Origin: Curvularia clavata
Taxonomy: Eukaryota
Direction: 5' to 3'
DNA length: 64,000 bases
Assembly (NCBI GenBank): GCA_023920165.1
Contig: CP089277.1
Span: 3,348,001-3,412,000, forward strand
Shown here: positions 54,213 through 59,600 of the stretch, in pieces
Layout of the letters: every line of letters begins with the position of its first letter
Position numbering within the stretch: position 1 is the first letter of the stretch
Made by a program: the position numbers and the translations under genes
The notes under the pieces: generated by a model
Seen by the model: the letters and a program-made list of their open reading frames with translations, nothing else
Told to the model about the DNA's origin: nothing
Databases searched by the model: none

Positions 54213-55051
54213 ATGGCTACGAACAGTGAATCGTCTACACGTCCAGCCTTCAAACTACCCGAAGGCTTTCTCGAAGGCCCGGCTCCCAATATTACAAAAT
54301 CCAAGATTGACTTTCAGAAAGGTGGCATACCCGAATGCGCAAAATCCTGGGCCGTCGTCCTAGATGGCGTCTTGACCGAAGAAGAATGTGAAACTCTGTT
54401 GAAAGCAGCAGAGGCAACAACAGACAGCAAATGGGAACGAGCATTAGTAAATGTGGGCGGCGGAATGCAGGCCATGTATGAGGACACAAGAAAGTGTGGC
54501 CGTATCATCTGGGACACCAGGGAGATTATGGAGAAACTGTGGGCAAGAATAAACGGGGAAGTGCCCGAGATCCACACGCTGCAAAACTGGCCAGAAGTTA
54601 CCGGGAATGGTCCCGCTCGACGGGGAGAGACTTGGGTGCTGACACGATTGAACGAGCGAGGAAGATTCCTCAAATACGTTGGTGGTGAATACTTCAAACG
54701 TAGGGTTTGAACCGAGCGGAGAGACTACGTTGGCTGACTGAAATAGCTCATTGCGACGGCTCGTATGAAACGCCGGACCGGACCGAACGATCGTACTTCA
54801 CCCTGCATCTGTATCTTAATGATGCTATAGGAAAGGACGGCAAGCAACAGTTGGAAGGTGGTGCCACGACCTTCTTTAATGGGAGCATGACGCAGCGTAT
54901 AGACGTGACACCCAAAGCCGGCCGGGTTCTGCTATTCCAGCATCGTCTTCTGATCCATAGCGGAGACGATGTGGTGAAAGGAACAAAATATACACTACGG
55001 ACAGACATCATGTACAAGGTGCGTGATGGTGCGACAGAACCAGCAAAATGA
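54213..55051 (+). CDS. 2OG-Fe(II) oxygenase, prolyl-4-hydroxylase-like (intron 54700-54746)
   Basis: LNERGRFLKY..GEYFKPHCDG (HxD), TLHLYLND, GGATTF, GRVLLFQH..IHSG..V.KG.KYTLRTD. Confidence 0.9.
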
Positions 55052-55189
55052 ACTATGCCGTTAGAGAAGAGGAGAGAGTCGAGCACGTAATCGCTTGGTA
55101 CTAGCACATTGTATTTCTTTATTAGTAGTATCCTTGAACTCGTGGGTAGGTGTCAAAGGAGCAGACTTACATAAGAAAAAAAAGAAGTG

Positions 55190-55590
55190 AACGACCTGCC
55201 TCGCCAGAGTAATCAGAATCGAATGATACCCTATCCTTTTTCACCCAAAAAAGGGCTACTCAAGGTCAAGTACGCTGCGTATTGTACTACAGTGTCGCCT
55301 CTGACTCGAGAAAACGAGCCAAAGACACACAATCTTCGCACCGACTCCCATAGGGAACACCAGTTCCAACGCGCTCCGCAAGGAAACGCGCTTTTCCGGG
55401 CCCTGAGCTTTCTGATGCCGAGTGCAGACGTGAGTCACGCCAGGCTCTTACGAGCAGTACAGTCCTCTTTCGAGAACGTGATAGAAAAGGTGAAGATTAC
55501 TCCGAATTTCTCATTTGCAGGGTTGCGACTACTCAGCGAGGAGCGTCTGAATGTGTGCAAAGAAACGCAGCTTTGGCGAGGCAGGCCGTT
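55190..55590 (-). ncRNA. RPR1: Nuclear RNase P RNA
   Basis: Minus-strand RNA folds canonically. P1: AACGGCCUGCCUCGCCA/UGGCGAGGCAGGUCGUU. P2: GCUGCGU/ACGCAGC. P3: UUUGCA..UGCAAA with internal loop. CR-I GAGAAAUUCGGAG pairs (P4, bulged U) with CR-V AUUCGAUUCUGAUUAC. CR-III UUGGAAC, CR-IV AGUACAAU, and GNRA hairpins are present. Confidence 0.9.
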
Positions 55591-56641
55591 GTAGAAGTGA
55601 GAAACATTTTTGGGCGGGGTTTTGTAGCTCGCGAGCGGACGCGCTAGCGTCGCCTAAACTAGGGCAACGCCAGCGCACGTGCTCCGTCTCCACTGGGATA
55701 GCAGCAGGACAAGACTTGCGTGCGAGCGACGCTTGATGAGTACATGACAGCAAAGTCTTTTCTCAAGACCGATATTAAATGCACAACTTCTATTCTATGC
55801 GAATAAGCCTCACGGCGACAGGAAAAAGCCCTAATTTTCATAAATTCCTTATTATTCTTCATTTCGTGTACATCGACACGCCGTAACTATAAACTTCTAC
55901 TGCTCGTAATGCAGTAGAGCGTGTTGAATGACCACCCCTCTTCTACCCTCAATCTACTTCTCGAACTCGCAGTAGAAAGCCCCATCGCGCAATTTGAGTG
56001 GGCTCCTGAGATGTGTAAATCGTTCTAGGGATAAAGCAAAAAAAGAGCAGCAAACGCGCAAAAACAACAAGACAAAACGCAGTACCTCTTGGTAGAGCAT
56101 ATATAAAGCCAGGGATGCAGATAAAATCCCACAATCGCTAACGCCATGCACATATTTTTTTTGCAGTGGGAGTGAATAAAAGGAGAAGAGACCCATAAGA
56201 TTAAACGCCGATACTACCCTTAACAGTAGGGTGTGTATGCAAAATAAGGTCCAATCTCGTGGCGTAGGTAAAAGACAGATTTTTGGTGCCGCTAGAGTCG
56301 CAGCTTGGGTAATAGCGGTGTATGTTGTACATATACGGGTTTGCGAGCAATGTGTTGTAATGAGACGCATGCGAGAGAAGCCCATCAGTCGTTGAACAGG
56401 ACGTGTTGAAAAGGACGTGAGCCTAGTTAAAGGAACGACCGCTTGCAGATACGACCTGCCCTACGCGACCAGCCGTGATGGGTTGGCAGGAGTTTAGATC
56501 GAACTCTTCACCAGAAAAGCGGGCACGCACCCACGCGGCTTGCTCAACTTCTGCCAAAAGTTCGTCCAAATCATCCAAAGAAGAGAACAGATTTTGATAT
56601 AAAACAGAGAAGAAATAAAAAGCCCTACATCAACGAGCCTT

Positions 56642-59600
56642 CTACTGCTTTGGAGATCTGGTGCAAAGTCAGCGAATGCTACAACGAAAGAGATTGCCTA
56701 CAACTATGACCATGGGGAACTTACGTGGGAGAGTACGCCGGACCTGGAGAAGTCGGGCTGTATCTCGGAGAGGTTGGGGAGAAGGCCCCTGCCGGACTAG
56801 TGGGCGAGTATCGAGGTGACGTTGGGCTGTACTGAGGTGATGTGGGGGATGTAGGAGAGCGACGATCACTGCCTGCCTGGTATTGCGGGCTGGTGGGACT
56901 GTACTGTGGCGAAGTAGGGCTGTATTGTGGCGACGTCGGGCTGTACGCGGGCGAAGTAGCACCACCCATGAACGTGGGAGACGTTGGACTGTAGTTGGGT
57001 GATGTGGGCGAGTACTGAGGCGATGTCGGAGAGTAACCAGCTGGAGATGTGGGCGAGTACGAGGGCGATGTAGGCGACCCATAGCGTGGTGACGTCGGAG
57101 AGTAGTGTGGCGACGTAGGAGAGGCAACATACCCTGGCGAGGTAGCAGCAAAGCGAGGGCTGGCGAATCCAGGGGAGGTAGGCGAGTAGCCAGGGGAGGT
57201 AGGAGAGAAGCCTGGCGACACCGGGCTGGTAAAGCCTGGAGACATACCAGTGAAACCGGTGCCTGGGCTTCTGGCTCCATCGAATGGACTGAAGCCGCCA
57301 CCAGCGGCCCCGTAGGTGGATCCGTAATCTGTGAAGCCATCCCTATCGCCACTACCTCCTGCAGCAGCAATGGGCGAGAACGAAATATTGTTATAGAAGC
57401 CCATGTCCATACTACCACCTTCATAAGTAGGCGAACCCAAGTCGTACGGTGTCCTGGCACCGTCGGTATTGAGGTGGCTTGCACCCACACCAGTGCCCTT
57501 GGCGTTGTCCTCAACCATGGTGAGAAGCATAGCATTGTCCATGACAACGTCAAACTCTCCGGTACCCATTGGTGCAAGCTGGCCAAGCATGATGTTTTCG
57601 GACACACCACGGCAGTCGTCAAGCTCTCCAAAGCCAGCAGCTTCAAGAAGAATCTCGACAGTCTCTTCGAACGAACAACGCATCAAAGCTCCGGTATCAT
57701 TTCGGTTGATACCGTGACGAGTGATGGCCATGAGAAGACCACGCTGGCACATGATATCGACAAGCAATGCCATGTGGCGATGGTTGACGTATGAACCGTC
57801 GAACGACAAGACCATACCCAATTCTTTGAGCAGACCAGCTCGAGCCGCTTCGATACCAAGCACACCAAGAATTTCAATGAAAGAGTTGGAATACGTCTTT
57901 GTCGCATCCACACCCTCAATGGACAGTACGGCGGCCAAGGCAGTACCAGTGGTGTCGAGAACCCATTCAACACACGCTTTGTTGCTCCTCGAGTGCATTA
58001 GGGACCTGTCTTCCTTCTCAATCGTGACGGTGTGCTCTCGGATGAACGCACGCTCAATACCACGGACACCGCGAAGACTGACGTCGTCAAGAAGATGCTT
58101 CTCCAGCTTACGCATCCATCGCTCGTCGCGCTCATCTTCATCCTCGTCGTCCTTTTGAAGGTTCTGGTCCCAGATGAAACGGACACGTATGACCTGTTCG
58201 TCCGCGTTCTCATCGCTGAAAATGACTGCGAGATTTGGTTTGAACTCCTCCTTGATCTTACCAGCAACTTCACCGATGGTGATGCTCTTATCCAGCAACT
58301 TCTTGCGGTCGAGGATGATACGAAGCAGCCACTTCGACTGCGAATCAATAACCTCGTCCTCCTCGGGCAGGATAAAGTAGGACTCGACCATGTCCTGGTC
58401 CTCTTCGACAAGTGTTGATTGGATGTCAGGATCGTAGTAGAGCTCGACAGCCTGCGTCAGCGAACGGAGGGTGGTGTGCTCGATGGTGCTTCGCAGTTGC
58501 TTTGCCTGCAGCTGGCTTCCCTTGGAGTTTGCTTGGCGGACAAGCATAGAGGGTGTCTTGATGTTGGCAGCAATGTTCAAGATTTCCTTGAGACGTGGCA
58601 CACCAAGGGTGACGTTCTTGGAAGACACACCAGCAAAATGGAAGGTGTTGAGCGTCATCTGCGTAGCAGGTTCACCGATAGACTGGGCTGCAAGCACACC
58701 GACCATTTCACCAGGAGCAACAGCAGCCTTGAGGAAGCGGTCTTCCAGTTCTCCCAACACGTAGCTCAGCGCCTCCTTGCTCAGGCGATGTTCAACAGCA
58801 AGCTTCTTGAAAGCAAGACGCGCTCGTAGGTGAGCCTTGAAGAGGTAGGTTGCACTGTCTTGAGCCTCTCTGGACAGTTCGTCGTCGCCACGAATGACAA
58901 CAAGGCGGTCAAGTGTCTGGCGCACCTGGTTGATAGTCTCAATCGGATGAAGATTGCTGGCAGCCTTTTCTGGATTGATACCGAACCGCGCCTGGGCAGA
59001 ACGAATCATACGCGCAATGTTGAGCGGAAGCTGGAAGCTTTCCAGGTTGTCTTCGCTGGCGTTCGCACGGAGGTATTCACGGTCAGTCTTGATTGCATCA
59101 AACTCTTCGTCAAGAGCACGTTGTACGTCGACATCACCCTGGAACAGGGGAGAGCTCTCGAGTTTCCAGACCGGGATTTCTGGCTGATCAGTGGTAAGGA
59201 CATCCAGTTTATATGCGGCCTCAAAAGCAGCCTCAGAAGACATAATGATGTCCATCGACTGATTCTCGATGTGCGCGCCATCAAGACCGTCTTCACCGTA
59301 GACGAATTCGACAATATCTCCCATGGAGTTACGGACGGTACCGTCATACTTAACCATCACATCTTCGAGGGCCTTGACCAAGCGACGTTGAATGTATCCT
59401 GTTTCAGCCGTCTTGACTGCCGTGTCGATCAAACCTTCACGACCAGCCATGGCGTGAAAGAAGAACTCGGAAGGTGTAAGACCACGGAGGTAGGAGTTCT
59501 CGACGAAACCACGAGACTCGGGTGAGTAGTCGTCCTTTGAGAAATGCGGCAACGTCCTGTACTTGAAACCGTACGGAATACGCTGTCCTTCCACGGCTTG

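Follow-up and report, generated by a model that had tools for sequence, protein, structure and literature searches.

The nuclear RNase P RNA gene on the minus strand of a 64,000-nt stretch of the Curvularia clavata genome (contig CP089277.1, positions 3,348,001 to 3,412,000; hereafter the window) is followed by a compact cassette of spliceosomal signals, namely a 5' splice site (donor) and an extended branch-site box, that is retained in nearly all related loci with adequate 3' flanking sequence. Comparison of these loci indicates that the cassette signals are under purifying selection across approximately 20 lineages and that a 3' splice site is avoided. The best reading of this arrangement, which we hold with moderate confidence, is that transcription reads through the end of the RNA, that the spliceosome cleaves the transcript in a reaction confined to the first step, and that the released RNA is trimmed back to helix P1, which bounds the predicted mature molecule. 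For the broader proposition that, in a broad clade of filamentous ascomycetes, the RNase P RNA has left RNA polymerase III (Pol III) and is made as an RNA polymerase II (Pol II) transcript with its 3' end generated by first-step-only spliceosomal cleavage, the balance tips slightly in favor. A sequence-only reading of the window had proposed that the 3' end of this RNA is set by the spliceosome and that the transcript is hence probably a Pol II product; the comparative evidence described here lends strong support to that proposal.

All the motifs on which this proposal was built (an internal T6, a T8 run, GTAAGT, TACTAAT and CTAG) proved to be correctly located, on the minus strand, as did the 21-nt distance from the branch A to the G of CTAG at 55101. 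A single distance had to be corrected: the U8 tract had been placed twenty nt past P1 but, once P1 is extended to 17 bp, its end is followed at 7 nt by the start of U8 and at 20 nt by the donor. TACTAAT occupies 55127-55121, with the branch A at 55122, 48 nt beyond the donor. The distance from the branch A to the AG is indeed long, as had been noted, given that two RNA-verified introns of the window have 9 and 11 nt at this place and the other four triads discussed next have 12-14 nt. Both strands of the 64-kb window together contain 17 GTAAGT hexamers and only five strict GTAAGT..CTAAY..YAG triads, one of the other four abutting the RPB1 reading frame; therefore, the occurrence of such a triad 20 nt behind a non-coding RNA on the same strand is improbable by chance, although this estimate rests on one window, which cannot settle the matter.

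In a single scan of metagenome contigs with a pattern derived from the conserved regions CR-V and CR-IV, 71 loci were returned, of which 33 are RNase P RNA genes, recognized by a CR-I at 190-300 nt upstream, by the P1 3' strand or by both; the remaining 38 pattern hits are unrelated sequences without CR-I and P1. Three of the RNase P loci were excluded for short flanks (the sequences of L040 and L043 stop at P1, that of L058 22 nt past its GTAAGT). Among the 30 with at least 100 nt of 3' flank, 28 carry both the donor and the branch box, so that the orthologous loci keep the two signals, as the sequence-only reading would have it. The two loci without the cassette, L019 and L046, look like chimeric or RNA-derived contigs and were treated as such: L019 diverges within P1 and carries a permuted junction, and in L046 (386-1732) an RNA body 91% identical to that of L048 is followed, past P1, by an unrelated 5' untranslated region (UTR) and a 300-codon open reading frame (ORF) on the same strand, the sequence past P1 showing no similarity to any other locus. 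Removal of six identical duplicates left 22 versions which, together with the window, form an alignment of 23 (A1) that falls into 20 clusters at 95% RNA identity; between the window RNA and the other aligned versions, identity ranges from 62 to 84%.

In this alignment, the mean pairwise identity is 0.94 for the donor hexamer and 0.89 for the 13-nt branch box, as against 0.51 for the trailer between P1 and the donor, 0.36 for the 30 nt that follow the box, and 0.32 for the spacer that separates it from the donor. The donor is GTAAGT in 19 of the 23 versions, GTCAGT in two, and GTGAGT and GTATGT in one each; GTCAGT represents two divergent lineages and three loci (the identical L034 and L062, and L045). 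The branch box fits GGAT[AC]CT[AG]CT[AG]A[CT] in 22 versions, with L045 having a shorter GCTAAT site, and changes only at tolerated positions (A/G, C/T), save for one A-to-C replacement in its 5' part; the branch site itself appears as CTAAC, CTAAT or CTGAC. Judging from these substitutions, the variants of the cassette follow the degeneracy of splice signals. The hexamer GGATAC on the 5' side of the branch site is as conserved as the branch site, with one change in 22 versions (A1 columns 91-103), and canonical branch-site pairing fails to explain the conservation of these six nucleotides. Along with the three nucleotides that follow, they would be fully complementary to the putative branch-binding region of U2, in a register without a bulged A.

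Beyond the branch site, the picture is the opposite. No version among the 23 has a YAG at 7-20 nt past the branch A, and the first AG at a distance of at least 7 nt is found 7-122 nt away (median 31), mostly as RAG and at no conserved position. With one representative counted for each of the 20 clusters, AG occurs 25 times at +6 to +45 after the branch A, compared to 48.3 +/- 5.3 in shuffled sequences (none of 1000 shuffles was as low), whereas the control zones are not depleted (21 vs 20.6 at +46 to +85, 28 vs 26.5 at +86 to +125, and 31 vs 24.9 in the spacer). The stretch after the box is A-rich (35% A) and lacks a pyrimidine tract; following it, an CATGCGAA-like motif can be discerned (A1 columns 104-125) in L005, L026, L051, L055, L061 and L071 and, in part, in others. 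As a control, we used an intron of the convergent oxygenase gene at the same loci, where an AG is located 8-10 nt past the branch A in all 14 introns with a recognizable branch site (three further oxygenase introns had no branch site by the pattern used and were left out). The comparison thus indicates that the signals which the spliceosome needs to assemble and to carry out the first step are retained, whereas those for the second step are avoided.

The course of events that we propose would start with transcription that continues past the U-rich trailer, a behavior that points to Pol II. The spliceosome would assemble on the donor just past P1 and on the extended consensus branch site 48 nt further and, with no usable 3' splice site available, would perform only the first transesterification. 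The 5' exon so released would comprise the RNase P RNA and a 19-nt trailer ending at 55171, and 3' exonucleases would trim it to the P1 helix, with the U-tract possibly serving as a transient landing site for La/Lsm. We infer from sequence comparison that the spliceosome is used, that it halts after the first step and that trimming follows, and likewise which polymerase is at work.

With regard to the polymerase, the longest T-run in the trailer is T2 in one version (L031), T4 in six, T5 in two and T6-T9 in fourteen including the window; with T4 or less in 7 of the 23 trailers, a terminator-length run is not conserved among the orthologs, and in L003, L023, L028, L031, L048 and L054 the next T5 is at least 291 nt away or absent within 1.3-3 kb. 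The lineages with T8-T9 keep a perfect cassette, as would be expected only if the polymerase reads through such runs, which points to Pol II; together with the seven versions with no run beyond T4, this makes Pol II the probable polymerase of the gene. The alternative that survives best, although we consider it unlikely, is an ordinary Pol III gene that ends in the T-run after P1, with the cassette serving only rare read-through transcripts (fail-safe clean-up or decay) or having some other role. Such a gene would readily account for the window T8 seven nt after P1 and for the corresponding runs of T4 or longer in 22 and of T6 or longer in 14 of the 23 versions, and it would conform to the rule, stated in two papers (PMC6797745, PMC4287351), whereby the RNase P RNA of eukaryotes is typically transcribed by Pol III. 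Four public RNA runs (X1, X9, X10 and X11) were used, all in the form of contigs, which cannot show ends, strand, absence or rare forms; the contigs of X10 and X11 stop upstream of the T-run, at 55197 and 55201, which is weakly in line with Pol III termination. It is difficult to reconcile with a Pol III gene, however, that seven trailers have T4 or less and six lineages have no T5 for at least 290 nt, that the cassette is equally perfect beside T8-T9, where nearly all Pol III should stop and a fail-safe would be under almost no selection, that internal runs of T5-T6 are not avoided, and that an AG-depleted zone follows the branch site, which is unexpected for a mere decay signal.

The internal runs also bear on the internal U6 to which the sequence-only reading had drawn attention. 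This tract is present in the window but says little as evidence on its own: it is polymorphic, being T5 in run X1 (in which about 1% of positions differ from the window), and none of the related loci has a run of T5 or longer at this place. Overall, T-runs of at least five within the mature RNA occur at the chance level, in 5 of 22 distinct sequences vs 4.6 +/- 1.9 in shuffles. The U-tract of the trailer, by contrast, has some function, because a run of T4 or longer is placed after P1 in 22 of the 23 versions; it could act as a short Pol III terminator, provided that the enzyme of this clade accepts T4, or, under the cleavage model, as a place where La/Lsm land once the RNA has been trimmed. 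In yeast, Lsm proteins bind the precursor of RNase P RNA. The runs of at least four U in the 22 trailers lack the flanking purines of an Sm site, and no purine-flanked AU-tract-G is present.

Less probable still is a complete intron, whereby the RNase P RNA would be exon 1 of a spliced Pol II transcript with distant, lineage-specific acceptors (CTAG 55101 in the window), and other nucleases would free the mature RNA. The window does have a YAG 21 nt past the branch A, every locus has some AG further on, and the preprint by Burke (10.1101/224170) describes TER1 as also being fully spliced at a low level. Against this stand a 3' splice site that is conserved neither in position nor in sequence, nearest AGs that are mostly RAG and scattered over 7-122 nt, an A-rich stretch in place of a pyrimidine tract, and the depletion of AG over 40 nt. 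Furthermore, the joint 55171^55100 expected of such an intron is not seen in the contigs of the four runs, which drop rare forms; for cleavage without exon joining, this absence speaks neither for nor against.

The cassette lies within the 3' UTR of the convergent oxygenase gene, in antisense. The distance from CR-V to the donor is 33-37 nt (standard deviation (sd) 1.2, n=21) and that from the donor to the branch A is 42-51 nt (sd 2.8, n=21), whereas the distance from the branch A to the oxygenase stop codon varies between 35 and 105 nt (sd 19, n=21); by this measure, the position of the cassette is tied to the RNase P RNA, not to the convergent neighbor. In L034/L062 and L045, the convergent ORF is a different one, which gives neither a Pfam match nor an oxygenase hit; the cassette is retained there. 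The oxygenase mRNA is antisense over the whole cassette (the X9 contig extends to 55191), and the oxygenase is the convergent gene in 26 loci. Even so, it is highly improbable that the motifs are plus-strand elements of the 3' UTR or terminator of the convergent gene, or a chance resemblance: the cassette lies at a fixed distance from the RNase P RNA and not from the oxygenase stop codon, three loci retain it beside another convergent ORF, its variants match splice-signal degeneracy, and it has few strict counterparts in the window.

Upstream of the RNA, in an alignment of 19 loci (A2), there is a nearly invariant box with a TATA-like core, at the place of which L008 has a true TATAAAA. An invariant CAA precedes P1 in all 19 loci, and a pyrimidine tract upstream of the RNA includes runs of T5-T7 at -20 to -5 in L003, L015, L053 and L054. 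Inspection of the upstream alignment by eye only, with no profile scan, for the A and B boxes of Pol III genes revealed weak resemblances and nothing convincing. No donor is seen upstream of P1, where there are promoter-like boxes instead, so that the gene does not have the intron-embedded layout of insects. Taken at the level of sequence motifs, the upstream region constitutes an external promoter from which transcription would begin at the mature 5' end or close to it; such a promoter is unlike the A/B-box leader promoter of yeast RPR1 and fits Pol II or a TATA-dependent Pol III alike.

Several considerations weigh against first-step-only cleavage of a Pol II transcript. The predicted cut between 55171 and 55170 comes from sequence comparison, and the contigs give no RNA evidence for it. 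Only one contig, from run X1, spans the cassette, and it extends without a gap or a splice joint from the oxygenase across the RNase P RNA as far as 55687. This contig also includes the convergent oxygenase mRNA, has no strand information and may merge convergent transcripts. Its cover of about 100 nt upstream of P1 is left unexplained by a start at the mature 5' end, unless it represents antisense read-through. The cassette is antisense to the oxygenase 3' UTR in 26 loci. The scan pattern required identical CR-IV and CR-V, and the sample hence represents one clade. The T-runs of four or more start 3-9 nt after P1 in 22 of the 23 versions and reach T6 in 14, which resembles Pol III terminators, and there are no tRNA genes in the window or the 30 loci, so that the Pol III terminators of this clade are uncalibrated. 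A TATA-like box at -30 also suits external Pol III promoters, such as those of Schizosaccharomyces pombe. Finally, the argument from complementarity to U2 depends on an assumed U2 sequence.

The identity of the RNA itself appears well founded. RF00009, the Rfam model of nuclear RNase P RNA, matches 55577-55203 on the minus strand over its complete length (model positions 1-301), with 25.7 bits and an E-value of 1.8e-5 in a permissive cmscan search, so that the assignment made in the sequence-only reading holds when a covariance model is applied. In an Rfam scan of the window at the gathering threshold (28 bits), no RF00009 match is listed, the window score falling just below. Among 18 related loci scanned with the same model, 10 score 28-41 bits, one scores 26.6 bits and seven are not listed at E <= 0.001; because 10 of these relatives reach such scores, the sub-threshold score of the window RNA is best read as divergence, not as a different RNA. 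CR-I, CR-IV and CR-V are all present in the cmscan alignment, and the pairing of P4 is feasible, with the CR-I and CR-V strands giving five pairs, one of which is G-U. The two strands of P1 were located by pairing score; the three bases preceding GG in its 5' strand are invariant in 19 of 19 aligned loci, and the helix covaries, as judged by eye and a simple pairing score, its outer pairs being C-G in the window and G-C in L034/L045, with compensatory changes also in L015 and others.

As for the ends of the RNA, the X10 contig (from an oligo-dT metatranscriptome) covers only 55197-55534 and the X11 contig only 55201-55520; that the contigs of these two studies both end upstream of U8 suggests, if only weakly, P1 as the end of the abundant RNA. 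The break point in L046 marks the approximate end of the mature RNA. In two short contigs, L041 (1-70) and L019 (about 300 nt upstream of CR-IV), the 3' part of the RNA, as far as CR-V, runs directly into the 5' part at a point just inside P1, with a 3-nt microhomology at each of these permuted junctions, which could be template-switch or assembly artifacts on an abundant RNA or a trace of circular isoforms. Circular RNase P RNA isoforms are claimed in a preprint (10.1101/2025.06.30.662392). Neither the U6 hairpin region nor the cassette gave an informative folding signal (z-scores -1.09, 0.58 and 0.22).

The gene upstream of the RNase P RNA gene, on the same strand, is RPB1, encoding the largest Pol II subunit, which occupies this position only in the window among the loci compared. 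A 67-nt intron near its 3' end, 56658-56724 on the minus strand, is confirmed by a joint in the X1 contig. The RPB1 transcript contig reaches as far as about 55857, and the roughly 170 nt from there to the RNase P upstream boxes are uncovered; run X1 has no cover at 55723-55839 and shows no joint around the RNase P RNA.

On the other side, the 2OG-Fe(II) oxygenase gene is the convergent neighbor in 26 related loci, with 63-83% amino-acid identity in the last exon, and the nearest protein-atlas clusters of its ORF are in Ascomycota. The contigs of X1 and X9 skip the oxygenase intron 54700-54746 (GT..AG; joint 54699^54747) and are thus RNA-derived; across 55035-55193, X1 is identical to the window. 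The spliced X9 contig of the oxygenase mRNA, running to 55191, bears out the earlier remark that the cassette overlaps the 3' UTR of this gene in antisense, and its end is one base from the predicted 3' end of the RNase P RNA at 55190, so that the two genes abut tail to tail. The A8/T8 tract may also be part of the oxygenase poly(A) region. The features of the locus are collected in the table.

Table. Features of the RNase P RNA locus (window coordinates)
Feature	Position	Strand	Basis
Last exon (stop codon ends 55051) and 3' UTR of convergent 2OG-Fe(II) oxygenase	54747..55191	+	PF13640, E 8.9e-9; X9 contig
A-rich, AG-poor zone without conserved 3' splice site; own candidate CTAG 55104-55101	55080..55120	-	AG counts
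Branch-site box GGATACTACTAAT, branch A 55122	55121..55133	-	conserved in 22/23 versions
Variable spacer, donor to branch box	55134..55164	-	identity 0.32, 0.45 bits per column
Donor (5' splice site) GTAAGT; cut predicted at the 55171/55170 boundary	55165..55170	-	conserved in 23/23 versions
3' trailer, 19 nt, U-rich, U8 at 55183-55176	55171..55189	-	sequence
Predicted mature nuclear RNase P RNA, ~401 nt	55190..55590	-	RF00009 full-length match; bounded by 17-bp P1
P1 3' strand	55190..55206	-	pairing score and alignment
CR-V / P4 3' strand	55207..55219	-	cmscan alignment
Internal T6, variable hairpin between CR-IV and CR-V, lineage-specific	55247..55252	-	sequence
CR-IV	55281..55288	-	cmscan alignment
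CR-I / P4 5' strand	55500..55512	-	cmscan alignment; same 13-mer upstream of matched motifs in related loci
P1 5' strand	55574..55590	-	pairs with 55206-55190
Conserved box GCTACAAAACCCC, TATA-like core 55626-55620 at -36 to -30 from A55590	55616..55628	-	A2, nearly invariant
Element CTAGCGC, in most of 19 aligned loci	55641..55647	-	A2
CACGTG box, conserved in a subset	55676..55681	-	A2

A search of the open-access literature and bioRxiv, with subscription journals outside its range, yielded no account of splice signals downstream of a fungal RNase P RNA gene. Going by titles and abstracts, the 32 papers covered, out of 34 open-access papers since 2015 that speak of 'spliceosomal cleavage', all concern telomerase RNA or use the term generically. 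In their 2015 paper, Kannan et al. (PMC4299874) asked whether telomerase RNA is a lone case or the first of a group, searches for further members being hampered. If the mechanism proposed here is correct, RNase P RNA would be the second functional RNA class, after telomerase RNA, to be matured by first-step-only cleavage, and an essential, universally conserved ribozyme with a TER1-type module would answer this question. It would also represent a second polymerase switch of RNase P RNA, besides that of insects, and would tie the tRNA processing capacity of these fungi to the activity of the spliceosome. With a 70-nt cassette beside an abundant RNA in culturable fungi, the case is easily testable.

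Among the known systems, RPR1 of Saccharomyces cerevisiae, a Pol III gene with an A/B-box leader promoter and an oligo-T terminator, belongs to the same RNA family. Apart from the RNA itself, it has in common with the window and most of its relatives a U-run just past P1; in the clade analyzed here, however, the T-run is not conserved, no clear A/B boxes are discernible by eye, a TATA-like box is found at -30, and a splice cassette follows. In insects and crustaceans, RNase P RNA is embedded in a Pol II intron, insects being the known exception to Pol III transcription according to two papers (PMC4287351, PMC6797745). As described there, this is a precedent for a polymerase switch and for dependence on splicing, but the insect RNA resides inside an intron of a host mRNA and is freed after full splicing, whereas here the RNA would be a 5' exon, with signals downstream only.

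Cases of interrupted splicing named in the available text of the preprint 10.1101/224170 are only BDF2, TER1 and SPBC530.07c. In BDF2 and SPBC530.07c, so far as this text goes, the first step likewise occurs without the second for want of an acceptable acceptor; the outcome there is destruction or down-regulation of an mRNA, in contrast to the RNase P RNA, where the released 5' exon would be the functional product.

The closest parallels come from fungal telomerase RNAs. Box and colleagues in 2008 and Kannan and colleagues in 2013 reportedly found that the 3' end of S. pombe TER1 is generated by spliceosomal cleavage. The RNase P locus resembles TER1 in that a donor shortly past the 3' end of a non-coding RNA is combined with a perfect branch site and a distant or absent 3' splice site, that the RNA body and the donor are separated by a U-rich tract, and that trimming is expected after the cut. 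It differs in the RNA concerned, in the lack of a recognizable Sm site, in a mature end that appears to lie upstream of the U-tract, at a helix, and in a branch box extended by six conserved nucleotides; moreover, cleavage here is a prediction from sequence. In filamentous ascomycetes, too, the spliceosome makes the 3' end of a non-coding RNA, as stated for the telomerase RNAs of Aspergillus and Neurospora (PMC4299874, PMC3603654); their donor starts with a non-canonical A (AUAAGU in Aspergillus, PMC4299874), whereas the RNase P cassette has a canonical GU and lacks a 3' splice site.

According to Kannan et al. (2015), fungal telomerase RNAs halt splicing after step 1 in three ways (PMC4299874): perfect branch-site complementarity along with a long distance from the branch site to the 3' splice site in S. 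pombe TER1, an unusual GUCAGU donor that prevents the second step in the TER1 of S. cryophilus and S. octosporus, and the AUAAGU donor in Aspergillus. In S. cryophilus and S. octosporus TER1, the donors are located 14 and 27 nt past the mature ends and trimming follows, according to the same source (PMC4299874); similarly, the RNase P donor is about 20 nt past the end of the RNA, and two lineages have GTCAGT at the same position. The window and, in all, 19 of the 23 versions use GTAAGT instead, and stalling by GUCAGU in those two lineages would be by analogy. Judging by these signals, the RNase P cassette is of the S. pombe-type design in most lineages and of the GUCAGU type in two.

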